Part shown: piece by piece, positions 18,717-54,971 of the stretch | How the letters are laid out: each line of letters opens with the position of its first letter | Position numbering within the stretch: position 1 is the stretch's first letter | DNA from: Peptococcaceae bacterium | GTDB taxonomy: Bacteria; Bacillota; Dehalobacteriia; UBA4068; JAAVYR01 | Direction of reading: 5' to 3' | DNA length: 64,000 bases | Assembly (NCBI GenBank): GCA_022791255.1 | Contig: JAAVYR010000004.1 | Location: 92,094 to 156,093 of the forward strand | Program-made: the position numbers and the translations under genes | Notes under the pieces: model-generated | What the model was told of the DNA's origin: nothing | Seen by the model: the letters and a program-made list of their open reading frames with translations, nothing else | The model's database searches: none

Positions 18717-18920
18717 TTATTTATATTTATCCATTTCCAGAATATGGTCTGTAGTAGTATGAAAAAACAGAGCCAGCTGCACCAAATGACAATTAGGAAG
18801 ATTTAACCTGCCAACTTCATAATTAGAATAAGTAGTCTGATGAATGCCTAAATAATCCGCTATTTGCTGTTGCGTAAGACCATGTTCTTTCCGTAGGGTA
18901 ACTAGCCGAGGATATGCCAT
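18717..18920 (-). CDS. Small XRE-family HTH transcriptional regulator (67 aa).
   Basis: MAYPRLVTLRKEHGLTQQQIADYLGIHQTTYSNYE is a Cro/C1-type HTH. Its start overlaps the stop of the upstream XRE gene by 19 nt (ATGGCATATCCTCGGCTAG). Confidence 0.6.
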   Translation of the reverse strand: MAYPRLVTLRKEHGLTQQQIADYLGIHQTTYSNYEVGRLNLPNCHLVQLALFFHTTTDHILEMDKYK

Positions 18921-19156
18921 AGGGGCTCGCCTTCTTTCTCCTCTGTAAAAAATTCGCTTAAGGAAATATTCAAAATCTGACAAAGTCTGACAATCGTCAG
19001 CATTTTAGGGTTACCGATGCCCTGCCGCATTCTCTTTAATGTGGTTTGAGACACACCAGAGAGGATGGATAGCTGAAACATCGTTAGATGTTGCTCTTTT
19101 CGTAAGGTCTCCACCCGTCTGCCGAGCCATAGGGTAAAATCATCAGTAGATATCAT
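18902..19156 (-). CDS. Small XRE-family HTH transcriptional regulator (84 aa).
   Basis: LRKEQHLTMFQLSILSGVSQTTLKRMRQG HTH. Divergent from the RHH gene. Confidence 0.7.
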   Translation of the reverse strand: MISTDDFTLWLGRRVETLRKEQHLTMFQLSILSGVSQTTLKRMRQGIGNPKMLTIVRLCQILNISLSEFFTEEKEGEPLWHILG

Positions 19157-35072: not shown

Positions 35073-35326
35073 TGCTCCTTTCTGAAGTAATATTAACCAA
35101 AATTATGTTACCCTGGCTGTCTTATTCTATTTATAAAGACGGAAAAAAACAAAAAAAGTTCGTTATTTGTCGAAGGTTGTCAAAAAAACATACACTAAAA
35201 TTTTACACCAAGAAAAAAGTCTTTGCAACGCGTGCAAAGACTTTTTTAAAACAAAATCATCATAAAATTTGTAAAAAATCATTTTTTTAGATCCTTCACA
35301 TCCGTTCAGGATGACAATGCCATATC

Positions 35327-36240
35327 TTATTTTTGGCTCATTACTTCTTCTGCCATTTTTACCATACCGTCTTGGTCTAAAGCTAAGTCCTGACCGCACA
35401 AGTTATACTTCATACCGTCTTTTACCCAAGTCAGATTAGTCATATAGCAGTCTTCTACAGCGTCACTACCATAGCTGATAAAAAGTTCTCCAGCATCCAT
35501 TGCAGCCTGGTCTTCCGGCGTCACTTCATAGTTTACCGGTACGAATTTATAGTGGTCCTTTGCATAATGGTAATCGATACTTTCTCCGTTAGCCAGGGTA
35601 ATGGTACCGGAAACATCACCAAAATCTTGACCGGTAAAGACGCCACAAATAGAAAGAACAATCCATTGATTATCTGCATTACGATAATCTAAAGACAACT
35701 CCGGCATAGTTTCTAACTTTGCGCCGTTTTCATCATGAGTTGTGCTTTCTCCTACGCTATAGCTGGTAAATTTGAAGCCGTTGGAAAAGCTTTCTACTAC
35801 ATCAGGACGGGTATTTAATACCTATTCCATCTTGGTTACGGTAGGGAATGTTTCCCCGGCGCGGTGAGAATGCCCTTCATAGCTTGCAATTTTACCAAGA
35901 GCAAAGCAGGTAGCAGAGGTAAGACATAATGCAGCAGCAACAGCTGCTACTAACACTTTTTAGATTTCATTGGTTTATTCTCCTTTATTAGTTTCTGATT
36001 TTGAGATGCACTGCAATAAAGAGGAGTAACGATATCTTCTGGTTCTTTTTCCTGCAGCGGCATATTTTTTTCGGGGCCTTCTGCCATCATCTCTGCTTTG
36101 ATAACTTCCTCCATAATCCGGTCCGTAAAAGCAGCGGCTTCCTCCTTATTCGCAAAAAAGATATGGTCCTTCGCTGTATTTACAAACGCATCTTTTAAAA
36201 TTTCATCAAAGCATTGGGCTCGGTCTGTTTCTTTATTCAT
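35327..36240 (-). pseudogene. Anti-sigma factor gene (cytoplasmic N-domain, one TM helix, extracytoplasmic domain). Disrupted by a -1 frameshift in an A5 run (~35960-35966) and an in-frame TAG (35824-35826).
   Basis: Start ATG overlaps the sigma stop (ATGA at 36237-36240). Frame 1 ends MKSKKC* after 96 aa. The TM segment VLVAAVAAALCLTSATCFALG continues in the +2 frame and reaches TAG. The same frame then continues into the 126-aa ORF 35327-35707. Confidence 0.45.
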
Positions 36241-36839
36241 AAGGATACCTCCTCTTCATCAGTGGTTTTTCCGGAGTGAGTAAAAACAAAGGCAGATGTT
36301 TTGGCTTTTTGTAATAATTTTTCTTTTAACTTTTGCCTGCCATGATAAAGACGGGATTTTACAGTGCCTTCTCTGATATCCAACATCTGAGCAATTTCTC
36401 CCACAGAAAAATCATTAAAATAATACAAAGTGAGGACTGTACGATGGATATCCTCCAATTGATGAAGCATATCCAGCAATAACTCTTTATCTTCTGCTGT
36501 TTCCTCATCAGCTGCGGCTTGGCTTTTCTCTATTTCTTTTTCTTTGGCAGGAAAAATATCTGCAATAGGAATAGCTTTGCCATCTTTTTCCTTCTTCCGC
36601 CAAGCTATCCGCGTTAAGATACGGTAAAACCACCATTTGAATTGGGCGGGATTTCTTAGTTCTGATAAATGAAGATAACACTGAACAAAGGCCTCCTGCA
36701 CCACATCCTGAGCCGTATAATGATGTTGGGTGAGAAAGAAAGCCGTAGAGAGAGCATGGCTCTGATATGTCTCCACCAAAAAGCGGAAGCTGTCTTTATC
36801 TCCCCGTTGCGCTTGTAATACAGCAGTTACTTGGTCCAA
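36237..36839 (-). CDS. ECF-type RNA polymerase sigma-70 family factor.
   Basis: Region 2 (YQSHALSTAFFLT..DVVQEAFV) and region 4 HTH (FSVGEIAQMLDIREGTVKSRLYHGRQKL). TTG start at 36839 with RBS AAGGAG-N9; a GTG 24 nt upstream is the alternative. Confidence 0.75.
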   Translation of the reverse strand: MDQVTAVLQAQRGDKDSFRFLVETYQSHALSTAFFLTQHHYTAQDVVQEAFVQCYLHLSELRNPAQFKWWFYRILTRIAWRKKEKDGKAIPIADIFPAKEKEIEKSQAAADEETAEDKELLLDMLHQLEDIHRTVLTLYYFNDFSVGEIAQMLDIREGTVKSRLYHGRQKLKEKLLQKAKTSAFVFTHSGKTTDEEEVSL

Positions 36840-37047
36840 TATGATAATCTCCTTTCGGTGCACCTATCTATCAAGAGAACAAAACTTCTATATTGGTTCA
36901 AAAAATTGGTTCAAAAAATATATATTTTCTGTCATTCTGAGCAAAGTCGAAGAGTCTTAGGATTATTTAAGATAACCACATGGTACCACCGATATAAAAA
37001 GGGACTGCAAATTTTTGCAGTCCTTTAGCTATTTACCAAGTGGCAGA

Positions 37048-38115
37048 TTACGGCATGACGACAATATTGGTGGCAACTTTACGCTGGTTGCCGTCAGAAG
37101 GTTTATTGAGCAGCTTACCATTATACACCATAGCACTGGAGCCGCCACCATCTAAGGTAAAGGCTTCCATAACGCCTAGCCTTAACAGCAGTACTTGCAT
37201 TTCTTCTAAGGTAATGCCGGAACTCCAATCCTTTTGCCGTCCGTCTACGACGATGAAAAACACATCACCATTGGGGTATTGCCCTAGAACCGTACGAGGT
37301 TGCTTGGATTTTGCCCATTTGCTGGGGATAGTAATTTTTTCCCAGTCGCGGATAAGCACCGGCACAAAGCTAACGCCCTGCCAAGCGCCACTTTTCTTTA
37401 ACTCCTCTTCTGTATCATAAATGCCCCCTACCAATTTACCGCTTTTGGTAAAGCCAGCAAAGGCTAGGTCATTCCAAGAAGGAGTAAAATCACCAATCAG
37501 TTTTCCTTCTACCATCGCATTGCCTAGAGGCACAAGTTTGGTTACACCATCTTGGGTAGAAGAAGCAAAACCGCCTCCATTGACGCCAAAGATAGCTTTT
37601 GTTCGCTTGACAGCCTGAGCAGTGGTTTCTCCTTTAGGGCTATCATCTGGGTTCACTGTTACCCGCAGAGCTTTATCGGTCTTTAGCTTGATTTTCGCCA
37701 TATAGCCCCGCATATCTTCTTCAGCTAAAGTAAAAATCTGGATTTTAGAATTGGTGCCGTCATGGGTATAGACGGCTTTTCCCAAACGGTCCACAATCAT
37801 CTTTTCATAGGTGGCGTCTGTTAAATTTTTATTTTTAGAGCTATTCTGAGCTAGCTGATCCAGCTGACTAATAATATCCTTTTGCCGCTGGGCTTCTTCT
37901 TGGGCAGACTGTTGAAAGCCTGTCATCGCAGCAGAAAGCCTATCCAACCCACCTTGGAAATTCGTCAGATTACCATGGAAGGTCTCCCGGTTCCACACTT
38001 CCTTGCTCTCCTCTGCCAACACCATTGGCTTTTGCAACAAAGTTCCAGCCAATGCGCCTACGCTCATAGCAGCAACAAGACTGACTGCAAGCAGCAGATT
38101 ATTTCTTTCTCCCAT
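37048..38115 (-). CDS. Phosphodiester-glycosidase-family protein (DUF2233/NAGPA-like), secreted.
   Basis: Signal/TM N-terminus. FGVNGGGF and TLDGGGSSAMVYNGKLLNKPSDG motifs. Terminator at 36987-37018. Confidence 0.65.
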   Translation of the reverse strand: MGERNNLLLAVSLVAAMSVGALAGTLLQKPMVLAEESKEVWNRETFHGNLTNFQGGLDRLSAAMTGFQQSAQEEAQRQKDIISQLDQLAQNSSKNKNLTDATYEKMIVDRLGKAVYTHDGTNSKIQIFTLAEEDMRGYMAKIKLKTDKALRVTVNPDDSPKGETTAQAVKRTKAIFGVNGGGFASSTQDGVTKLVPLGNAMVEGKLIGDFTPSWNDLAFAGFTKSGKLVGGIYDTEEELKKSGAWQGVSFVPVLIRDWEKITIPSKWAKSKQPRTVLGQYPNGDVFFIVVDGRQKDWSSGITLEEMQVLLLRLGVMEAFTLDGGGSSAMVYNGKLLNKPSDGNQRKVATNIVVMP

Positions 38116-39242: not shown

Positions 39243-40415
39243 CTACTTTACTATGCCACCGTCTATAATGATGGTCTTACCATAATGAGAAAAAATATTC
39301 ATCTTTGTATCTGTAATCAAAGTCTGAGTTTTCTCCCCTACCAATTTTAATAGCTGTTGGCACCGCTTCTCATCTAATTCTGAGGCTACATCATCTAAAA
39401 GCAGCACTGGATATTGACCGCTCTTCTGATGAAACAAATCAATCTCTGCTAGCTTCAAAGCAAGGGCCGCTGTCCTCTGCTGCCCTTGAGAACCAAATTG
39501 ACGAGCAGAAATACCATTAATGGTAATGGCAATATCATCTCTATGGGGTCCTACACCTGTAGTGCCTTTATACAAATCTTCCCGCCGATTTCTTTCTAAT
39601 GCCAGTTTTAACTGCTCTTTTAAAAAATCCTGCTGGGTACTGGAAGAAGTATGGTCTTTTTTCATCCTAGCTAAGGTTTGCCAAACTTCATCGTTTTGTT
39701 CCTTTTGACGGAAAAGAGCTGCTTCATAAGAAAGATGGATATATTCTTTACCATCGCTCAACAACCGATGAATTTTTTCAGCAAAGGGAAGGATATCTTC
39801 TAGTAGCTGTTGTCTTTTCAGTAAAATAGCACTACCATGACGGCTAAGTTCCTCGTCCCACACGGCAAGCATCTCGGGATCTGTCTCACCATAGGATTGC
39901 TTTAAATATTTATTTCGTTGTTCCACACTTTGCCGGTAAGCACTGTAAACAGGATAAAACTCCCCATCAAGCTGCAGTAGTTCCCTATTTAAAAACTTCC
40001 GACGAATAGCAGGACCGTCCTTTACCAGTGATAAGTCCTCTGGAGAAAAAATAACTGTCTGAAAATGTCCCAGCACTTGGCTGGTCTTTTTCAGGGCTTT
40101 GCCATTGATTTTCCATAATTTTCTTTTTTCCCTAGTATATCCCACAGACATCTCCAGGGGCGTCTCCTCACCAGAAAAAGGGTCTCTGCCCCTGACCCCG
40201 GCACATAAAAAAAAGTAGGGTTCCTGCCAGCGAATTAAATCTACATCGCTGCTATCCCGGTAAGAGCTAGCCAACGAAAAATAACAGCAAGCCTCTATGA
40301 GATTAGACTTTCCTTGTCCGTTTAACCCCGTAATTAGGTTAATATTTGGGTGCCATTGGATGAATTGCTCCTGATAATTACGAAAATTCCGCAGTAATAA
40401 AGACTCAATACGCAC
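39243..40415 (-). CDS. recF: DNA replication and repair protein RecF.
   Basis: GLNGQGKSNLIEA Walker A, LLLDDVASELD Walker B, conserved dnaA-dnaN-recF order. Confidence 0.9.
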   Translation of the reverse strand: MRIESLLLRNFRNYQEQFIQWHPNINLITGLNGQGKSNLIEACCYFSLASSYRDSSDVDLIRWQEPYFFLCAGVRGRDPFSGEETPLEMSVGYTREKRKLWKINGKALKKTSQVLGHFQTVIFSPEDLSLVKDGPAIRRKFLNRELLQLDGEFYPVYSAYRQSVEQRNKYLKQSYGETDPEMLAVWDEELSRHGSAILLKRQQLLEDILPFAEKIHRLLSDGKEYIHLSYEAALFRQKEQNDEVWQTLARMKKDHTSSSTQQDFLKEQLKLALERNRREDLYKGTTGVGPHRDDIAITINGISARQFGSQGQQRTAALALKLAEIDLFHQKSGQYPVLLLDDVASELDEKRCQQLLKLVGEKTQTLITDTKMNIFSHYGKTIIIDGGIVK

Positions 40416-40476
40416 CCTTTTTCACCTACTCTTTCTTAGACGCTTTCTCTTTTAAAAAAGTTTCTTTTTATTTTTA

Positions 40477-40692
40477 TTATTCTGTTACAACTTCATATTG
40501 GATATCTTCTACTGTTACTTGATCACCAACAAATATTTTTTTGCCAGGGGAAGTTTCCATACTGCCATTTACCAGAACCATACCATCTCTAATCATTTCT
40601 TTTGCCATGCTGCCATTTTCAGCGATACCGCACCACTTCAACAACTGCTGCAGCTGAATATATTCTGTATGAATAAATACTTTTTCCATCAT
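40477..40692 (-). CDS. yaaA: S4-domain RNA-binding protein (YaaA/RlbA-like).
   Basis: 71 aa, IQLQQLLKWCGIAENGSMAKEMIRDGMVLVNG. Position between dnaN and recF. Confidence 0.7.
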   Translation of the reverse strand: MMEKVFIHTEYIQLQQLLKWCGIAENGSMAKEMIRDGMVLVNGSMETSPGKKIFVGDQVTVEDIQYEVVTE

Positions 40693-40835
40693 GATGCCTC
40701 TTTTATCTCATAAATTTATGTTCTAATTATCTTTATCATATGTTATCTATTATATCAAATATCTATCTTAAAAAAAACTACCTCTTATCCCATTGCTTTG
40801 CATAAGAGGTAGCTTATTTTACTTTTATTTAATTC

Positions 40836-41936
40836 TTATCCAATCCTTACAGGCAGGATTAAATAAAGAAAGTTTTCATCAGCGTCGCTGGTAATAATCC
40901 CCGGTGTTACAGGCCCGGTCAGCTCCATATAAAGAGAGTCGCCTTCTATATTTTTTAATACTTCTAAAATATACTTGCTATTATAAACGACTTCTATCTC
41001 TTCCCCTTGATGAAGGATAGACATATGACCATCAATGGTACCTAAATCCGGTGCGCTAGCATGGAAACCCAATAAATCTTGACCAAAATGAAGCTTAATC
41101 ACACCTGCCCCTTCTCTTGCTACCACAGAAGCCCGTTCCATTTCTTGTAAGAAACGGCTGCTTTGAATGACGCTTTTCGTAATAAAAGCCTCTTTTTTCG
41201 GAATTACTTGATTATAATCAGGATATTGTCCATTAATCACCCGGGAAATAAAGGCAACTTGTCCTGTCCGGAAATAAATCTGATTTTTAGAAATAATCAA
41301 ATCAATCTGTTGATCCTCCGCTGCAAAGCGAGCAATCTCTTGCATAGTCTTAGCAGGAACGATAACCTTGCCCACACCTTTTCCCTGCCAAGGAATGACT
41401 TGTTTTGCCAAACGGTGGGTATCTGTAGCCACCATGACCAACTGACCTTCTATAAAATCTAACAACACCCCAGTAAAAACAGGTCTTGCTTCATTGGTAG
41501 AAGCAGCAAAAGCAACTTGTCTTACAATTTTCTTAAAAAGAGGTGCCGGAATAGAGCCTTCAATATCCCCCTGTACTTCTGGAAAGGCTGGAAAATCCAC
41601 TGGGTCCATACCACGGAACACAGTCTCAGAATTTTCATAGCTGACTGTCAAATCAAATTCTCCTGTTTGAGCTAAAACAATAGTACCTTGGGGTAAAAAA
41701 CGCACTAAATCTAAAAAGTTTTTACCTGGAACCACTACTTTCCCAGAAGCTTCTACTTCTGCAGGAATACAACACTCGATAGCTAACTCTAAATTTGTAG
41801 ATTGTAAGAAAAGACGGTCATCCTCTGCCCACAATAAAATACCAGATAACACTGGCAAAGTATTTTTACCAGAAACAGCACGGCTTACTGTCTGTACGCC
41901 ATAAAGCAAATCTTCCATCTGACAAGAAACTTTCAT
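40836..41936 (-). CDS. dnaN: DNA polymerase III beta sliding clamp.
   Basis: 366 aa, three-domain beta-clamp pattern, immediately downstream of dnaA/oriC. Confidence 0.9.
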   Translation of the reverse strand: MKVSCQMEDLLYGVQTVSRAVSGKNTLPVLSGILLWAEDDRLFLQSTNLELAIECCIPAEVEASGKVVVPGKNFLDLVRFLPQGTIVLAQTGEFDLTVSYENSETVFRGMDPVDFPAFPEVQGDIEGSIPAPLFKKIVRQVAFAASTNEARPVFTGVLLDFIEGQLVMVATDTHRLAKQVIPWQGKGVGKVIVPAKTMQEIARFAAEDQQIDLIISKNQIYFRTGQVAFISRVINGQYPDYNQVIPKKEAFITKSVIQSSRFLQEMERASVVAREGAGVIKLHFGQDLLGFHASAPDLGTIDGHMSILHQGEEIEVVYNSKYILEVLKNIEGDSLYMELTGPVTPGIITSDADENFLYLILPVRIG

Positions 41937-42488
41937 ATTCTTAAAATCCTTTCTCTCTGATCCTCAAAACAACCCAAATATCTCTATATTCTATTTTACC
42001 TATTTTTAACAAGAAATAAAATACTTTTCTATTTTTTCTGTTTATTGTTTTTTTTCATAGGTTTTTTCTAACATATAATCATCCTCTTAATCACAATGTT
42101 ATCCACATTATCCACAATCTTTGTGTATAACTAAAAGCCCTTATAAACCAAGAATTTTTTTTGTTCTCATGAAAATGATTTTCAGAAAAAAACTGTCATA
42201 ACATGGTCTTTTAATTAGTTATCCACAGTATCTTTGTGAATAATCCAAGTGGATAGTGGAATATTTTGATAAGTAGGCGACCTAATAAAAAAACTGTGAA
42301 CAAATGTGGATAAATTGGTGATGATTTTAAGATTATCCACTGACAAAAAAATGTATAAATGACCTGCAACACACTATAATAAAGGGGTTATCCACAAAAA
42401 ATTGCTACCCTTATTATTAATACTATTTAAAATAATAATAAATATAATAATATGCACAATCATAACAAAATAGAAGAAAACAGAAAAA
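41937..42488. other. oriC segment between dnaA and dnaN: DnaA-box cluster plus AT-rich DNA-unwinding element.
   Basis: TTATCCACA or 1-mismatch boxes at ~42098, 42108, 42228, 42305 (TGTGGATAA), 42342 and 42388. 60-bp AT tract (AATAATAATAAATATAATAATATGCACAATCATAAC) at 42405-42480. Confidence 0.75.
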
Positions 42489-43892
42489 TTATTTGTTAAT
42501 TAAATCAATAAGTTCATTAATAGCTCTGTTTAAATTTTCGTCGGTTACTTTTTCTGCAGAGATTTTTTCATAAGCATGCAGCACAGTTGTGTGGTCTCTG
42601 CCGCCAAACTCTTGTCCTACTTTTTGCAAAGGTTCTTCTAAAATATCCCGACAAAGATACATAGCAATCTGACGAGGATAAGCGATGGCCCTATCCCGAC
42701 GTTTATTTTTAAAATCTTCTACTTTTAAATGATAATAGTCTGCCACTACTTCTTGAATGGTATCAATGGTAACGGGCTTTTTGGGTTCATCAGGTAAAAG
42801 GCCTTTTAAAGCTTCACCAGCAATGGCTGGTGTAATCGTATTCAAACAATTAATATGTGCATAATAAATCACTTTGTTTAAAGCGCCTTCTAATTCTCGA
42901 ATATTAGAGTGAATGCGGGAAGCAATGAAAAATAACACTTCATCGGAGACAATAATATTTTCCCGTTGGGCTTTATATTGTAAAATAGCAATTCTCGTTT
43001 CTACATCCGGTGGCTGGATATCGGTAATCAGACCCATTTCAAAACGGGAACGCAGCCGTTCTTCTAAGGTAGGAATATCCTTGGGTGGACGGTCGCTGCT
43101 TAAAATAATCTGTTTGCCAGACTCAAAAAGGCTGTTAAAAGTATGGAAAAATTCTTCCTGGGTACTTTCTTTTCCAGAAATAAATTGGATATCGTCGACT
43201 AAAAGCGCGTCAGCATTCCGATATCTATTTTTAAAACTATGGGCTTTACCTAAACGAACAGAGGCAATAAATTCATTGGTGAAAGTTTCGGTAGAAACAA
43301 ACACTACATTAAAACCTGGATTATGTTGAATAAGATAGTAGGCTATGGCTTGCATCAGGTGAGTTTTACCAAGGCCGGAGCCACCATAAATAAAAAGAGG
43401 ATTATATGCTCTGGCTGGGCGCTCTGCTACTGCGTGGGCTGCAGCATGGGCAAAACGGTTTGAGTTGCCTACTACGAAAGTATCAAAGGTATATCTAGGA
43501 TTTAATTTATAATTATTGCCAGCAGAGATAAAGGAGTCAGTTTGTATTTCCTCTTCCTCTTCTTTTGGTTGGGCAAAATGATTGCTAAAAGAATTGCTTT
43601 CTCCACCTGTAAAATCAGTAGGAGAAGGCGTTTCTTCCCATTGATTTTCATTTTGATGAAAGGATATAAATAAGGGGTCTAGTTCTTCTCCTGATACAGT
43701 ACAAAGGGCATTCTTTACAATATGAGACATATTTTCTTCCATCCAGTCGCGGGCTACTTCTGTAGGCATGGCAATAATAAATTGATTTTTTTGCCGTGTG
43801 ACAGATAGAATAGAACGAAACCACCGTTCGTAACGGTCTTCTGGTATTTGTTGTCTAATAATGGTTTGGGCCTTTTGCCAAATATTGCTCAT
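42489..43892 (-). CDS. dnaA: Chromosomal replication initiator DnaA.
   Basis: 467 aa with AAA+ Walker A (GGSGLGKTHL), sensor motifs and C-terminal DNA-binding domain. Confidence 0.95.
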   Translation of the reverse strand: MSNIWQKAQTIIRQQIPEDRYERWFRSILSVTRQKNQFIIAMPTEVARDWMEENMSHIVKNALCTVSGEELDPLFISFHQNENQWEETPSPTDFTGGESNSFSNHFAQPKEEEEEIQTDSFISAGNNYKLNPRYTFDTFVVGNSNRFAHAAAHAVAERPARAYNPLFIYGGSGLGKTHLMQAIAYYLIQHNPGFNVVFVSTETFTNEFIASVRLGKAHSFKNRYRNADALLVDDIQFISGKESTQEEFFHTFNSLFESGKQIILSSDRPPKDIPTLEERLRSRFEMGLITDIQPPDVETRIAILQYKAQRENIIVSDEVLFFIASRIHSNIRELEGALNKVIYYAHINCLNTITPAIAGEALKGLLPDEPKKPVTIDTIQEVVADYYHLKVEDFKNKRRDRAIAYPRQIAMYLCRDILEEPLQKVGQEFGGRDHTTVLHAYEKISAEKVTDENLNRAINELIDLINK

Positions 43893-44200
43893 AGGTAGGA
43901 CGCCTCTTTCTAATTGTTGAACTGACTATTTTTTTATAGTTTTTGAAATAATTGCTGAAATGTAGGATGTAATGCTTATTTATGACGATATAGATACATG
44001 AAAAAAAATTTTGTTATAACTAAAGAAATTTGTTAAAAAAAGAAAAATGGGATTTTTTGGATAATTTGGATAATGTGTATAAGTTGTGTATAAAATAAAA
44101 AATTGCCCACTAAAAGTAAGAAAAGTACCTTGTAGATAATAAAATTTATTGGAAATAAAATTTATCCACAATTTGTGGATAAATTTTTAAATTTATAAAT
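43893..44200. other. Upstream oriC DnaA-box cluster (dnaA promoter region).
   Basis: Inverted perfect pair TTATCCACAattTGTGGATAA at 44162-44182 plus TGGATAAT repeats at 44058-44075. Confidence 0.7.
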
Positions 44201-44491
44201 GCAGTTTCATAATAACAGAGAGACTTGTCAAATTCAAGTAGATATTTTTTCCTACTATTACGATTATAATAGGGATAATCCAAAGATAATGGAACAATAA
44301 AAGGAAAAAAGTCTATAAAAGATATCTTACATATTTTCCAGGGAATGGCTTGACATTTCTACTTAAAAAAGATATACTTTTTTCGTTATACTGGGAGTAG
44401 ACCAGGGGGTTGTCTACAGCTTGCCGGCAGATGGATAGCTGTAAGGGCCCTTGTGGTAACAAATAAGAAAAAAGAGAGGAGAGATTGAAAA

Positions 44492-44626
44492 GTGAAACGC
44501 ACTTATCAACCAAAAAGAAGAGTTCATAAAAGAGTTCATGGCTTCTTGTCCAGAATGAGCAGCAAATCCGGTAGAAACGTATTAAAAAGAAGAAGAGCTA
44601 AAGGCAGAAAAGTTCTTTCTGCTTAG
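44492..44626 (+). CDS. rpmH: 50S ribosomal protein L34.
   Basis: GTG start with [56 protein letters not shown]. Below the track size cutoff. Confidence 0.9.
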
Positions 44627-44755
44627 CCAGATGACGAAGGCCGCCTTCCGCGGTCTTTCTTTCTATTTATTATAAATTTATATTTTAAAGCCAATAGAAA
44701 GAAACATCTATAAAAAGTAATCATAAAAAAGTAATGATATGATAAGGTTCTATTT

Positions 44756-45112
44756 ATGTTAAAAAAAACATACCGTTTAACCAGAAGAAATGACTTTCGC
44801 CGCGTCTATGGCCGGGGAAAGTCAGTGGCGAATTACAGTATGGTATTGTATGTGGCTCCCAGCAGAAACCAATCTATGCGAATTGGTTTTTCTGTTTCTA
44901 AGAAAATAGGCAAAGCGGTTGTTCGCAATCGAGTAAAAAGATTGATGAGAGAGGCTTCTTTTCATTTGCTTCCCTCCTTTTCTCCTTATAAAGATTATGT
45001 CTTTATTGCGCGCAATGGCATCAAAGAACAAAGCTTGTTAGAAATAGAAAAACAAATGGCGTCTTTGTTAAAGAAAATCAAAGAAAACAAGAAAATAGAA
45101 CAAAGTAGATAA
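44756..45112 (+). CDS. rnpA: Ribonuclease P protein component.
   Basis: KTYRLTRRNDFRRVY..GKAVVRNRVKRLMRE. Conserved rpmH-rnpA order. Confidence 0.85.
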   Translation: MLKKTYRLTRRNDFRRVYGRGKSVANYSMVLYVAPSRNQSMRIGFSVSKKIGKAVVRNRVKRLMREASFHLLPSFSPYKDYVFIARNGIKEQSLLEIEKQMASLLKKIKENKKIEQSR

Positions 45113-45146
45113 AGTAGATAAAATGGGTATGTTTTTTTAAGAGGGT

Positions 45147-45365
45147 TTGATATTTGTGAAAAAATTGTGTATGGGTTTGATTTTGTTTTATCAAAAAGCC
45201 ATTTCGCCTTTATTGCCTGCACGGTGCAGATTTTATCCTACTTGTTCTCAATATGCTTTAGAAGCAGTGGAAAAATATGGGGTATGGAAGGGCGGTTGGA
45301 TGAGTGTGAAGCGCATTTGCCGTTGTCATCCATGGTCGCGCGGCGGCTATGACCCTGTAAAATAA
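45147..45365 (+). CDS. yidD: Membrane protein insertion efficiency factor YidD.
   Basis: [32 protein letters not shown] signature. Confidence 0.85.
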
Positions 45366-45397
45366 GTGAGGTGAACCGCATTTTTTGCGGAAAATAA

Positions 45398-46255
45398 TTG
45401 AGTAGTTTCATCAATCTAATTCAACAATTTGTTGAATATTTATTTGGTTTGACCCAATCTTTTGGGTTTCCCAGCTATGCGCTGGCTATTATTTTGCTTA
45501 CCATCATTGTAAAGGTATTATTATATCCTCTGATGCGGAAGCAAATGCAGTCTATGGCTACTTTGAATAAGTTACAGCCAAAGATTGCTGCTATTGACAG
45601 AAAATATGGTAAAAATCCCGCTAAGAAAAATGAAGCTTTAGTAAAGCTTTATCAACAAAACAATATTAATCCTATGGCAGGATGCTTGCCTTTACTTATT
45701 CAATTGCCTATTTTTGTTTGTTTATATCGCGCATTATTAAACTTTGAATACACTGGCGGGTTTGATAGCTTCTATTGGATTGAACATATAGGAAACCCAG
45801 ACCCTACAGGGATATATCTGCCTGTTTTAGTAGGGCTTAGCACCTATGCACAGCAGAAAATCATGATAACTAATAAAAATGACCGTATGCAAAACACGAT
45901 GCTCTATGTAATGCCAATTATGTTGGGTTTTATGGCAATTCGTTTTCCAGCTGGTCTTTGTCTCTACTGGATTACCTACAGCATTATCGGTACCTTGCAG
46001 CAGTTGGCAGTTAATCATGGCAGCTTATTTGGTGCTGTAAAGCATTATATGGATAAGAATAACGGGAATGCAGAAGCAGAAAAGGAAGACGCTGAAACTG
46101 ACAAAACTAATAAAGCAGATAAGACCAATAAGACTGGCAATCAAAAGAAAACTGAGAAAAAACAAGGCAAACAAAATAAGTCTGTTGAGAAACAGGAAGA
46201 GCCTGCTCAACAGCCAGAAGAGCTGGAACATCCTGACCAGCAGGATGAAGCGTAA
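45398..46255 (+). CDS. yidC: YidC/Oxa1-family membrane protein insertase (short Gram-positive form with K-rich tail).
   Basis: Conserved TM core (PLMRKQMQSM..LQP; NPMAGCLP..IQLPIF). C-terminal lysine-rich ribosome-binding tail. Confidence 0.85.
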   Translation: MSSFINLIQQFVEYLFGLTQSFGFPSYALAIILLTIIVKVLLYPLMRKQMQSMATLNKLQPKIAAIDRKYGKNPAKKNEALVKLYQQNNINPMAGCLPLLIQLPIFVCLYRALLNFEYTGGFDSFYWIEHIGNPDPTGIYLPVLVGLSTYAQQKIMITNKNDRMQNTMLYVMPIMLGFMAIRFPAGLCLYWITYSIIGTLQQLAVNHGSLFGAVKHYMDKNNGNAEAEKEDAETDKTNKADKTNKTGNQKKTEKKQGKQNKSVEKQEEPAQQPEELEHPDQQDEA

Positions 46256-46282
46256 GACATTGGTAAAGAAAGAGGGAAAAAG

Positions 46283-47017
46283 ATGTCTATTACAATAGAA
46301 AAAACAGCGAAAACTGTAGATGAAGCCATTGATAAAGCATTAAGCGAATTAAATGTTTCTATGGATGAAGCTGATGTAGAAATATTAGAAACTGGTAGCA
46401 AAGGTATTTTTGGCTTAGGTGGAAAGGACGCAAAGGTGCGGGTAACTGTAAAAGGGAAAGAAGAACCATTATCCTTTGCTGTTGCTGACCAACGAAAAGA
46501 GACTGAAAGTGTACCAGCTCCTGTTAAAAAGGCTGCTGTTCCTACAGATGATGGCGAAGTTGAAAAAATCGCTTTAAACTTCTTACAAGGTATTTTTGAT
46601 TATTTGAAGGTAACACCTGATATCGCTATAGAACGAAAGGAAGAGTCCTTGTGGTTGACAATGACAGGTGCTAACCTAGGCGTTATCATCGGTAGACGGG
46701 GAGAAACACTAGACTCTTTGCAATATCTGACTAATTTGGTGGTAAACCGTAAGGTGGCAGAAAAACAAAGAATTATCCTAGATGTAGAAGGATACCGCAA
46801 AACGAGAGAAGAAACGCTGCGGGATTTAGCGGAAAAAATGGCGGGTAAAGCTTTGAAAATGAATGGGCCATTGCGCCTAGAACCGATGAACCCCCATGAA
46901 CGGAGAATTATTCATATGACGCTGCAGGGAGACGAACGAGTAGAAACCTACAGCGAAGGGGAAGAACCTTTCCGTCGGGTCGTTATCAAGAAAAAGCGTC
47001 ATTTCCAAGATAAATAA
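46283..47017 (+). CDS. jag: Jag/KhpB (EloR) RNA-binding protein: Jag_N, KH and R3H domains.
   Basis: Jag_N at the start, KH GxxG (IIGRRGETLDSLQYL), C-terminal R3H. Terminator at 47024-47065. Confidence 0.85.
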   Translation: MSITIEKTAKTVDEAIDKALSELNVSMDEADVEILETGSKGIFGLGGKDAKVRVTVKGKEEPLSFAVADQRKETESVPAPVKKAAVPTDDGEVEKIALNFLQGIFDYLKVTPDIAIERKEESLWLTMTGANLGVIIGRRGETLDSLQYLTNLVVNRKVAEKQRIILDVEGYRKTREETLRDLAEKMAGKALKMNGPLRLEPMNPHERRIIHMTLQGDERVETYSEGEEPFRRVVIKKKRHFQDK

Positions 47018-47055
47018 ATAAAAAAAACTGCAACTTATGTTGCAGTTTTTTTTAT

Positions 47056-48174
47056 TTATTTTAAGTTTTCAGGATTTAATGGTTCTAGTTCAGGTAAAAC
47101 AAATCGTCCGTCTTTACGGATAAGCACATTGTCAAAGTAAATCTCTCCGCCGCCATATTCCGGACGATGAATAGCAACCAAATCCCAATGTACAGCGCTT
47201 TGGTTGCCATTATAGGCGTCGTCATAACAAGCACCAGGCGTAAAGTGAATACTGCCGCAAATCTTTTCATCAAACAAAATATCATAGAGCGGAGATAAGA
47301 CATAAGGGTTGACGCCAATGGCAAATTCCCCTACAAATCTAGCGCCTTCATCTGTGTCAAAAATGGCGTTTAATTCTTCTACATGGTCTGCAGCTGTAGC
47401 GTCGATGATTTTACCATCTTTGAAAGTCAGCTTGATATCTCGGAACACGATGCCTTGGTTTGGAGAAGCAACATTATAAGAAATGGTACCATTGACGCTA
47501 TTCTTTACTGGGGCGGTGTATACTTCCCCATCTGGAATATTACAGTTACCGGCGCATTTAATGGCGCCAATTCCTTTGATAGAGAAGGTTAAATCGGTAC
47601 CCGGCGCTATGATATGGACTTTATCTGTGTTATTCATTAAGAGCTGCAAAGCGTCCATGGCTTTATCCATCTTGCCATAATCTAGGTTACAAACGTCAAA
47701 GAAGAAATCTTCAAAGTCATCGGTAGTCATTTCTGCAGATTGAGCCATGCTATCGTTAGGGTAACGGAGAATGACCCATTTCGTTTTTGCTACGCGGATA
47801 TCGTGATGAACTGGTTTTTGATAAAGGCTGGCATAGGCTTGCATTTTTTCTGCTGGTATGCCAGACATTTCAAAAGCATTGGCTTTAGCGCGAATGCCAA
47901 TATAAGCGTCCATTTGGGCCATGCGAGCACAGTCCCACTCTGCCATGGCGGTGAGCTGAGCGTCTGTAATATCCATCAAAAGCTCCCTGAGAACGGGGCT
48001 ATTATTCATGGACACAAAAGGTTGACCGCCCTTTTGATATGCTAAACGAACTAACTCTTTGGTTAATTCATTGGTTTGACTGTCTGTTTCGATGAGCAGT
48101 TTTTCTCCTGGTTGGAGATTGACTGAATAATCTATAAGCTGATGAGCAAGCTTAGTAATTCTTGGGTCTTTCAT
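47056..48174 (-). CDS. M29-family aminopeptidase (AmpS/PepS-like).
   Basis: MKDPRITKLAHQLIDYSVNLQPGEKLLIE N-terminus typical of aminopeptidase T/II. RBS AAGGAAGG before the ATG at 48174. Confidence 0.7.
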   Translation of the reverse strand: MKDPRITKLAHQLIDYSVNLQPGEKLLIETDSQTNELTKELVRLAYQKGGQPFVSMNNSPVLRELLMDITDAQLTAMAEWDCARMAQMDAYIGIRAKANAFEMSGIPAEKMQAYASLYQKPVHHDIRVAKTKWVILRYPNDSMAQSAEMTTDDFEDFFFDVCNLDYGKMDKAMDALQLLMNNTDKVHIIAPGTDLTFSIKGIGAIKCAGNCNIPDGEVYTAPVKNSVNGTISYNVASPNQGIVFRDIKLTFKDGKIIDATAADHVEELNAIFDTDEGARFVGEFAIGVNPYVLSPLYDILFDEKICGSIHFTPGACYDDAYNGNQSAVHWDLVAIHRPEYGGGEIYFDNVLIRKDGRFVLPELEPLNPENLK

Positions 48175-48486
48175 AGCAATTCCTTCCTTTTTCAGTAATA
48201 TGGTTAGCAATATATTTCTGTAGAATTATTATAGCACTGTTCTCAAAAAATATACAATAAATACCATTATTTTTCTAGGATTTAAAATTTTTTTATTTTT
48301 TTATAAATTTTACTTGCAATTTTTGTTGACATGGTGTATTTTTATAATGAGGCGTTACCCAGCGATAAGACAACTTAATTTGGGGCACACCCCACACAGG
48401 TTTTTTAGTTTATTTGCGTTTATCTACATCTGTTCAGTTTTAGCTTTGCTTTGATTGATAAACAATTTTTTTAGGGGGTGCTTCAT

Positions 48487-54055: not shown

Positions 54056-54157
54056 GTTTTCACCATCCGCTATTCATTGCTTTTGTTATCATTATCATTA
54101 CGATGATTTTCACGATTATATTTATTATATACGATACTGCACGGAGAAACAAGAGAA

Positions 54158-54186
54158 GGGTAATGTTTCACATGAAACATTACCCT
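54158..54186. promoter_or_regulatory. parS-like site inside an extended palindrome GGGTAATGTTTCACATGAAACATTACCC.
   Basis: Located between parA and rsmG. Same 16-mer as at 52308. Confidence 0.5.
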
Positions 54187-54251
54187 ATATTTTATGCAGA
54201 AGTACGATTTTTCGTGTTTTTTCCCTAAGAGAATGACAGAAAAGTGTGATT

Positions 54252-54971
54252 TTATAAAGGCTTCTTTTCCGGCACTCCTACCCGGCGCGGGTACTTTTCT
54301 GCAGTGGGAGATATTTTCTCTATGACGGTAATGCACCGTTCTCCCGGTTCTAATAATGCATAAGGATATTGGCCTTTTACCCGGCCGCCTAGTGTTATGA
54401 TAGCGTTTTGTGCCTCTGCCAGCTCTTCCTCTGCTTTTGCCCCCTTGAAGGCACAAAAGACGCCGCTTGTCTTCAGGAGTGGCAGAGCGTATTCGCAAAG
54501 GATAGAGAGTCTGGCTACTGCACGGGCAGTGACCATGTCATAGTTGCTCCTACCCTCTCCTCTGCCCCAGGTCTCTGCTCGGTCGCAAACGATAGTGACA
54601 TTTTCCAGGGAGAGTGCCTCAACTACTTGCCGCAAAAAATTGCAGCGTTTTTCCATAGACTCTAGCAGTGTTATGGACAACTCTGGCAGGAAGATAGCCA
54701 GAGGTATGGCTGGAAAGCCGGCACCGCTGCCGATATCTATTAACTTCTTCCCTGCTAGGTCTTTGATAAACAAACTTTCTAATACGGGAAGCAGCTGCCA
54801 AGCGTCTAAAAAGTGCTTCTCTGCTATCTGGTCTTTTTCAGTGATAGCGGTCAGGTTCATGGTAGCATTGGTTTCCAGCACCATCTCGCCGTAAAGAGCC
54901 AGTTTATCCAGCTGTTCGGCAGGCAAGTGAATGCCTTGTTTTGTAAAAATATCTATGATGGCTTGTTTCAT
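54252..54971 (-). CDS. rsmG: 16S rRNA (guanine527-N7)-methyltransferase RsmG (GidB).
   Basis: IDIGSGAGFPAIPLAI SAM motif. Conserved rsmG-parA-parB order. Confidence 0.85.
   Translation of the reverse strand: MKQAIIDIFTKQGIHLPAEQLDKLALYGEMVLETNATMNLTAITEKDQIAEKHFLDAWQLLPVLESLFIKDLAGKKLIDIGSGAGFPAIPLAIFLPELSITLLESMEKRCNFLRQVVEALSLENVTIVCDRAETWGRGEGRSNYDMVTARAVARLSILCEYALPLLKTSGVFCAFKGAKAEEELAEAQNAIITLGGRVKGQYPYALLEPGERCITVIEKISPTAEKYPRRVGVPEKKPL

Follow-up and report, generated by a model that had tools for sequence, protein, structure and literature searches.

Two apparently recent lesions in a putative transmembrane anti-sigma gene coupled to an ECF sigma factor gene in one clone of a Peptococcaceae bacterium

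Introduction

The 64,000-nucleotide stretch of DNA analysed here (positions 92,094 to 156,093 of contig JAAVYR010000004.1, assembly GCA_022791255.1, from a Peptococcaceae bacterium, an uncultured organism of the Clostridia type; hereafter the window) carries a gene for an extracytoplasmic function (ECF) sigma factor, immediately followed by pieces of what looks like a single larger gene. The locus raises the question of whether the partner of the sigma factor, a candidate anti-sigma factor, is truly broken and, if so, what kind of control over the sigma factor is left. An original prediction, made from the DNA letters, had read the pieces as an anti-sigma gene interrupted by a homopolymer frameshift and an amber codon, and had offered constitutive sigma activity, a phase-variable poly-A switch and sequencing errors as possible explanations. 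The data described below make it very likely that the locus holds a recent double loss-of-function allele of a transmembrane anti-sigma-type gene, located in a two-gene operon with the ECF sigma gene and carried by one clone.

Two lesions interrupt one ancestral gene

The sigma gene (36839..36237, minus strand; 200 aa from a TTG codon) overlaps the 96-aa open reading frame (ORF) located downstream (36240..35950, minus). The sigma ORF ends with GTA TCC TTA TGA; the ATG of the 96-aa ORF lies within that ATGA, and its GGAGG Shine-Dalgarno sequence sits inside the tail of the sigma gene. The 96-aa ORF, which is what survives of the anti-sigma candidate, namely its cytoplasmic N-terminal part, ends in KPMKSKKC. 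Upon addition of one A to the A5 run at 35961..35957 (minus), which is equivalent to a -1 shift, the frame continues with MKSKKVLVAAVAAALCLTSATCFALGK and includes a transmembrane helix. The restored frame then meets a TAG codon at 35824..35822 (minus), beyond which a script check found no further stop into the ORF at 35707..35327. The ATGA overlap, the MKSKKC end and the restored helix are all present on the minus strand, as originally described. The two sites had also been identified correctly, but the A5 run had been placed at about 35962, and the TAG codon had been given the span 35824-35826, a mis-stated strand direction that amounts to 2 nt.

The reconstructed protein is 304 residues long and aligns over 100% of its length to intact proteins of 304 to 308 aa. 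The best intact match has an E value of 7.2e-168 and 84% identity, and others show 76%, 76% and 73% identity; an end-to-end match of this kind is far beyond chance. Every aligned homologue has Q at the position of the TAG codon (KMEQVL) and KK-V at the tract. As evidenced by the full-length match, the three ORF pieces represent one ancestral gene beside the ECF sigma gene, and this gene is broken by exactly the two lesions that had been named. Lesion 1 is a 1-bp deletion in the A5 run (codons 94-95), at the boundary between the cytoplasmic and the membrane parts of the protein, whereas lesion 2 is a C-to-T nonsense change at codon 140. The sequence between them (35825..35956, minus) is an out-of-frame remnant that encodes a transmembrane, signal-peptide-like segment, VLVAAVAAALCLTSATCFA followed by LGK, and a juxtamembrane stretch, invariant across the aligned homologues. 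Codons 141-304 (35327..35821, minus) are the remnant of a predicted extracytoplasmic sensor domain and include the ORF at 35707..35327. In the NCBI record, the fragments are annotated as two hypothetical proteins, HFI72_01995 and HFI72_01990, the latter corresponding to the ORF at 35707..35327.

Comparison with orthologous loci, the check that the original prediction had called for, showed that the relatives are intact. Eleven related loci (among them L001-L004, L014-L017 and L019-L021) read TCT AAA AAA GT at the tract, corresponding to A6, or feature A7 in the most distant one, L004, a relative with 56% identity; codon 140 is CAA or CAG in every related locus checked there. L003 and L004 are the two related loci found in a scan of species-representative genome contigs, a collection that does not include the window's own genome. 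The closest locus, L014 (Logan SRR34289300), is intact, carries CAG at codon 140 and shares 97.4% DNA identity with the window over 2.35 kb, and is therefore regarded as conspecific. Its protein (P0126) differs from the reconstruction at three residues, in addition to the Q. Gene order is conserved among relatives, as genes encoding a RemA-like protein, a 250-aa protein, a NAGPA phosphodiester glycosidase, the sigma factor, the 304-aa protein, a GDSL hydrolase, a DUF4358 protein, NDK and a PHP protein follow one another, and the ATGA overlap between the sigma and the 304-aa genes is kept in all close relatives. The reading frame of the gene in the window is disrupted relative to intact orthologues at a syntenic locus, as expected of a disrupted gene or pseudogene.

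Three shorter homologues that start at MKSKK (P0005 and P0007 among them, 214-215 aa) were considered as independent splits of the gene and rejected, as their contigs start inside the gene and carry A6 and CAG. About 20 substitutions separate the window from L014, and seven of them fall within 19 nt (35576-35594, minus; codons 216-222; TL-A/N-NG-E/K-SI). This cluster probably marks a part of the sensor domain that is either a variable surface loop or a small patch of recombination.

The broken allele is present in seven other assemblies

Contigs 100.000% identical to the window, up to 7.4 kb in length and spanning both lesions, were obtained from seven other runs or samples (SRR29764159, JGI 3300051405, SRR11195282, SRR11195284, SRR11195287, SRR27304069 and SRR35275447). 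They were retrieved by exact-sequence look-up of the 96-aa and the 126-aa ORFs, and differ in their lengths and ends. The broken allele is genuine and belongs to one widely sampled clone. In the public data for the species, the clone is found in 7 samples and the intact form in 1, making the broken allele the commonest form seen. Two scans of metagenome DNA, one for the tract and one for the TAG/CAG site, gave 0 matches; the scanned collection evidently does not hold the JGI sample, since the exact JGI contig is retrievable by protein look-up.

An artefact of sequencing or assembly, with A6 and CAG in the true genome and an intact gene, had been among the explanations proposed. Some technologies often misread the length of homopolymers, and the window comes from a metagenome-assembled genome. 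Yet the seven other assemblies, which stem from Logan and JGI and from different runs and centres, are identical through both sites; one of the two lesions is a substitution, which no homopolymer error would produce, and no further broken genes were noticed in the inspected parts of the window. The probability that the break is technical is consequently negligible. The proposal of a phase-variable switch, in which the poly-A tract would toggle the anti-sigma gene on and off, draws on the fact that the indel lies in a homopolymer and that homopolymer hot spots are known in anti-sigma genes, such as rsiP (PMC3923885). However, the tract is only five or six nucleotides long, and the A5 form is found in all seven other assemblies of the clone, whose contigs run unbroken through the site. 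In the same gene, the A7 run (codon 57) and the T6 run (codon 28), which are longer, show no change. Exact look-up in 15 billion proteins revealed neither of the two single-lesion products, A6 with TAG or A5 with CAG. Moreover, the TAG codon located 44 codons downstream would leave an A6 revertant truncated and reversion useless. A switch is thus very improbable, and the proposal was abandoned.

Programmed recoding is a further way in which a full-length protein might still be made, by -1 frameshifting at U AAA AAG combined with read-through of UAG or insertion of pyrrolysine. Slippage of tRNA-Lys from AAG to AAA is a known -1 mechanism. An 8-bp RNA hairpin (-14.6 kcal/mol, z = -2.9; 35931-35950, minus) starts 6 nt after AAAAAG, and TAG is a rare stop in the window, ending 4 of 45 long ORFs. 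The two-frame arrangement, however, is not conserved: the conspecific locus and all other relatives are single-frame, the tract being A6 or A7 and codon 140 encoding Gln, and programmed recoding is excluded on this ground. The hairpin arises incidentally from GCN Ala codons and is found in intact alleles too, the slippery heptamer lacks its first A, and the window contains no suppressor tRNA. At best, leaky slippage would yield a 139-aa stub. There is hardly any chance that the locus is recoded. Reassignment of TAG was likewise rejected, as TAG ends genuine ORFs of the window and the aligned orthologues all have Gln at codon 140.

The sigma factor and its partner

The sigma protein, of about 200 aa, matches Pfam Sigma70_r2 and Sigma70_r4_2 and consists of regions 2 and 4 only. 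It scores 78.8 bits against TIGR02937 (sigma70-ECF; cutoff 42.9), in line with the profile of ECF (group 4) sigma factors; none of the equivalog-level NCBIfam models reached its cutoff. The likely start is the TTG at 36839, located 9 nt after AAGGAG and chosen by gene callers on identical contigs. The gene is intact, and every family-invariant residue is retained in an alignment with six orthologues.

The C-terminal tail of the sigma protein beyond region 4, TTDEEEVSL, is conserved (36237-36300, minus). The corresponding codons, GAA GAG GAG GTA TCC TTA TGA, carry both the GGAGG and the start of the downstream gene, and the conservation of the tail may reflect translational coupling rather than protein function.

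Gene context and topology support well an anti-sigma role of the partner protein. The gene lies directly downstream of the ECF sigma gene and overlaps it by ATGA, the gene order expected of an anti-sigma gene. Two distant members of the family, one in Romboutsia weinsteinii and one in a 259-kb metagenome contig, are also directly downstream of, and overlap, an ECF sigma gene. The intact ancestral protein has the topology of a membrane-bound anti-sigma factor, with a cytoplasmic N-terminal part, one membrane helix and an extracytoplasmic domain. A hydrophobic segment of 21 residues comes after KSKK and is invariant across the aligned homologues.

An AlphaFold2 (AF2) model of the intact conspecific protein, based on an alignment of 86 sequences, has a mean predicted local distance difference test score (pLDDT) of 81. 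It features two N-terminal helices (residues 7-25 and 32-53), an acidic linker that is disordered (residues 56-99), the hydrophobic segment and a beta-rich domain at residues 120-304 (pLDDT >95). The best structural match of the modelled sensor domain is to RseB and MucB; in a Foldseek search of the PDB, nothing was significant. Searches of Pfam and NCBIfam with the 304-aa reconstruction and with its N-terminal 96 aa gave no match at E <= 1, and a sequence search of the PDB with the family profile and the 96-aa ORF gave no match either. Among 86 distant homologues, DUF4367 is present in 12 and DUF4179 in 7, whereas nothing in Pfam or NCBIfam matches the close orthologues. In Firmicutes, DUF4179 is a mark of anti-sigma factors of the RsiV type, in which it forms a membrane and juxtamembrane module with a site-1 for signal peptidase (PMC6066255; PMC7826278).

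A conserved AAGGAG is located 9 nt upstream of an internal ATG, corresponding to M91 (35898-35990, minus; ancestral codons 85-115). A product starting there would consist of MKSKK, VLVAAVAAALCL and TSATCFA, followed by LGK, and resembles a Sec signal peptide; on sequence grounds, the site between CFA and LG fits the -3/-1 rule. This signal-peptide-like stretch could be a site-1 as in RsiV and RsiP, or could follow an internal start for a secreted sensor domain.

Age of the lesions and selection

Both lesions appear to be very recent. The dN/dS ratio of the reconstruction relative to L014 is 0.075 (Nei-Gojobori; 14.5 synonymous and 4.5 non-synonymous differences), and that of the sigma gene is 0.26, calculated on 8 differences. 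Once polarised with outgroups, the changes on the branch leading to the window comprise about 3-5 synonymous ones and a single missense one (D217A), besides the nonsense codon and the deletion. The low dN/dS and the few changes on the branch indicate that purifying selection acted on the gene until very recently. Relaxed selection, for which dN/dS would be near 1, was not seen in the comparison of the reconstruction with L014, because the lesions are too recent to have left a signal of decay in the ratio. Exact look-up in the 15 billion proteins did not find the clone's own intact ancestor protein either. Random substitutions in the anti-sigma gene create a stop in 4.3% of cases, and two disabling hits amid so little other change hint at selection, with counts too small to support a claim.

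Consequences for the control of the sigma factor

The ancestral 304-aa gene has suffered a 1-bp deletion, from A6 to A5, and a change from CAG to TAG at codon 140. The translatable remainder is the 96-aa cytoplasmic part, coupled to the sigma gene by the ATGA overlap, with loss of the membrane anchor and of the predicted RseB/MucB-like extracytoplasmic sensor domain. The helix and the sensor cannot be made from this allele, while the 96-aa part is still translationally coupled and the sigma gene is intact. As anchor and sensor are lost, the sigma factor would be beyond control by envelope signals through regulated proteolysis of its partner, and the system is probably uncoupled from the extracytoplasmic signal. 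The soluble N-domain may still sequester the sigma factor, resulting in a signal-blind state with the regulon locked low or damped; alternatively, partial or full derepression would follow if the fragment is unstable or binds poorly. We consider signal-blind inhibition at least as likely as constitutive sigma activity and, in a direct comparison with derepression, lean towards it by a little. The lean is due to the absence from the fragment of an Ala-rich membrane segment, VLVAAVAAA, of the kind that provides XAA degrons for ClpXP; this helix is encoded beyond the new stop. Soluble cytoplasmic anti-sigma domains are often sufficient for sigma inhibition. For instance, cytoplasmic RskA 1-86 alone inhibits SigK, RskA 1-85 of Yersinia likewise inhibits its sigma factor, and Nocardia species feature a natural RskA 1-81 truncation (PMC7509140). 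Release of the sigma factor normally requires ClpXP; once the membrane helix has been cleaved, as in released RsgI fragments, this protease recognises XAA motifs that have become exposed in it (PMC12203970).

Several points weigh against this interpretation. The expectation that the 96-aa ORF is an anti-sigma N-domain agrees with gene context and topology, but no signature of a known anti-sigma domain (for example zf-HC2/ZAS, RskA_N, RsgI_N or a class I four-helix ASD) was detected in the N-terminal 96 aa, and the AF2 model places just two helices within residues 1-55; sigma binding is therefore deduced from context. A single-sequence AF2 model of the sigma factor fused to the 96-aa part was uninformative (pLDDT 40). 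The independence of the samples rests on their different accessions, assemblers and contig ends, and all broken contigs belong to one clone, which therefore allows no statement on selection for the remaining fragment. As to the direction of the effect, sigma activity is constitutive in the best-known natural cases, mucA22 and the rsiP frameshifts (for the latter, PMC3923885).

Constitutive activity, as envisaged in the original prediction, is a serious possibility to which we assign somewhat less than an even chance. Natural frameshifts in anti-sigma genes of B. anthracis, some of them in homopolymers, cause 400-800-fold constitutive expression (PMC3923885); at our locus both the sigma gene and the candidate promoter in front of it are intact, and the long disordered tail of the N-terminal fragment (residues 56-96) might mean instability. 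Conversely, neither lesion touches the ORF for the cytoplasmic domain, its Shine-Dalgarno sequence or the ATGA coupling; in the systems tested, cytoplasmic domains on their own inhibit their sigma factors (PMC7509140); and in other systems, ClpXP finds its degron, after site-2 cleavage, in an XAA-rich membrane segment that is missing from the fragment. Counteracting sigma mutations arise after loss of an anti-sigma factor, and no such change is visible in the sigma gene of the clone, though constitutive ECF activity is often costly (PMC3923885). An adaptive path in two steps is a further reading. The TAG would come first, leaving an N-domain with helix and stub that mimics the site-1-cleaved form and is constitutively degraded, with the sigma factor switched on. 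The frameshift, selected later as a suppressor, would remove the membrane helix and its ClpXP XAA degrons and generate a stable, soluble, signal-blind inhibitor that silences or damps the costly response again; low-level -1 slippage at U-AAA-AAG, aided by the hairpin, could keep a small membrane-anchored pool. Such a path would account for two disabling hits on a branch with about one other missense change, notwithstanding the low share of substitutions that create stops, and for an indel in the A6 run exactly at the cytoplasm/membrane boundary and not in the longer A7 run inside the N-domain; it also has a precedent in the documented mutations that counteract the loss of an anti-sigma factor (PMC3923885). 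In contrast, the exact look-up revealed no intermediate with a single lesion, drift could account for counts as tiny as these, and the reverse order, frameshift first and a neutral TAG second, explains the data equally well. We consider the two-step path unlikely.

Relation to known anti-sigma truncations

The double loss-of-function allele is a fresh example of a well-documented type of event, represented by truncations of mucA, rsiP and rskA, and reveals no new mechanism. Among its closest counterparts are rsiP alleles of B. anthracis and the B. cereus group, in which a natural 1-bp homopolymer indel affects a single-pass anti-sigma factor co-transcribed with an ECF sigma gene in a Firmicute (PMC3923885). 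The rsiP lesions are located at residue 6, resulting in a null allele, and at residue 163, within the sensor domain. In contrast, the break described here falls exactly before the membrane helix, so that a complete soluble cytoplasmic domain remains. RsiP has no detectable sequence homology to the partner protein. RsiP and RsiV undergo site-1 cleavage by signal peptidase (for RsiV, PMC6066255), and the signal-peptide-like membrane segment with CFA before LG is similar in this respect.

The lost sensor domain also links the locus to the AlgU/MucA/MucB system, as RseB and MucB are the structures that its model matches best. Here, the predicted RseB/MucB-like fold is part of the anti-sigma protein itself, whereas it is a separate periplasmic partner in the MucA/MucB system. 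MucA22 retains the membrane helix and is degraded without a signal. The allele of the window differs in that the helix is lost and in that there are two lesions rather than one. P. aeruginosa mucA22 is also a 1-bp homopolymer deletion that truncates an anti-sigma factor in a host-associated clone (see also bioRxiv 10.1101/2024.05.28.596254).

Similar to Nocardia RskA 1-81 and the engineered RskA 1-86, only the cytoplasmic sigma-binding part would be left next to an intact ECF sigma factor (PMC7509140). RskA belongs to a different family and phylum; moreover, the Nocardia truncation is common to several species, hence old, and is accompanied by SigK changes, while here it is found in one clone with the sigma factor unchanged. 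DUF4179 anti-sigma factors of the RsiV type (ECF30 and related groups), which are almost exclusive to Firmicutes (PMC7826278; PMC6066255), resemble the partner protein in being single-pass Firmicute proteins with a short cytoplasmic domain. Unlike RsiV, however, the partner has a putatively RseB-like sensor domain instead of the lysozyme-binding DUF3298, and both the partner and its close orthologues are below every Pfam and NCBIfam threshold.

With regard to annotation, HFI72_01995 and HFI72_01990 should be read as fragments of one anti-sigma-type gene, the break in which is biological, not technical. The intact conspecific allele and the clone with the cytoplasmic domain only form a natural allele series in an uncharacterised Firmicute sigma/anti-sigma family with a putatively RseB-like sensor. 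The series could be used to find out if the sigma factor is inhibited by the soluble domain or set free.

Promoter, operon and neighbouring genes

Upstream of the sigma gene, the motif TGAACC-N16-TCTCTT (36873..36900, minus) is a plausible autoregulated ECF promoter with a candidate -35 element of the AAC type. The pattern TGAACC-N16-(T/G)CTCTT, followed by ATAGATAGG, is kept upstream of the sigma gene in all orthologous loci examined, including L004. The motif occurs once in the 64-kb window, against 0.09 matches expected, and a regulon search of the window with it returned the autoregulatory site only. Pairwise alignment with L014 revealed a 13-bp tandem duplication, two copies of ATTTTTTGAACCA (36894..36919, minus), that doubles the candidate -35 element TGAACC; L014 has one copy. 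L015, in which the anti-sigma gene is intact, has two copies upstream of the sigma gene, which have diverged but keep the 13-bp spacing. The duplication and the lesions are therefore unconnected.

Sequence and fold point to an intrinsic terminator (35213..35247, minus), in which a U-rich tail comes after a 15-bp stem (-17.2 kcal/mol) and which probably ends the two-gene operon. On the upstream side, the NAGPA gene (phosphodiester glycosidase, Pfam NAGPA; ORF 38115..37048, minus) is followed at its 3' end by a terminator-like hairpin found in a terminator scan (37002..37023, minus), which is likely to separate the sigma operon from transcription further upstream. The operon is about 6 kb from dnaA, dnaN and recF and therefore belongs to the core chromosome.

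The region at 39243-48210 spans the chromosomal replication origin. Its minus strand encodes recF, dnaN and dnaA (39243..43892) and its plus strand rnpA, yidC and jag (44756..47017). At 42-46 kb there is a gap rich in AT (GC 0.34), and the cumulative GC skew has its minimum near 41-42 kb. Genes similar to rsmG and to parA/soj, assigned by reading the translations, are found at 53.3-55.0 kb. Overlapping ORFs at 54070-54971 were considered as another broken gene and turned out to be the intact rsmG-like gene and a spurious ORF.

The ORF-poor stretch at 18.5-20 kb, another candidate for a broken gene, was rejected because it houses small helix-turn-helix (HTH) genes. Two XRE-type HTH-like ORFs of 84 and 88 aa overlap in different frames at 18717-19156 (minus), within 1.5 kb of ORF-poor DNA between a 532-aa gene and a 258-aa gene; judged by eye, the former is PEP carboxykinase-like and the latter short-chain dehydrogenase-like. 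The 45 long non-overlapping ORFs of the window are strongly skewed towards TAA, which ends 38 of them, with TGA ending 3 and TAG the rest.

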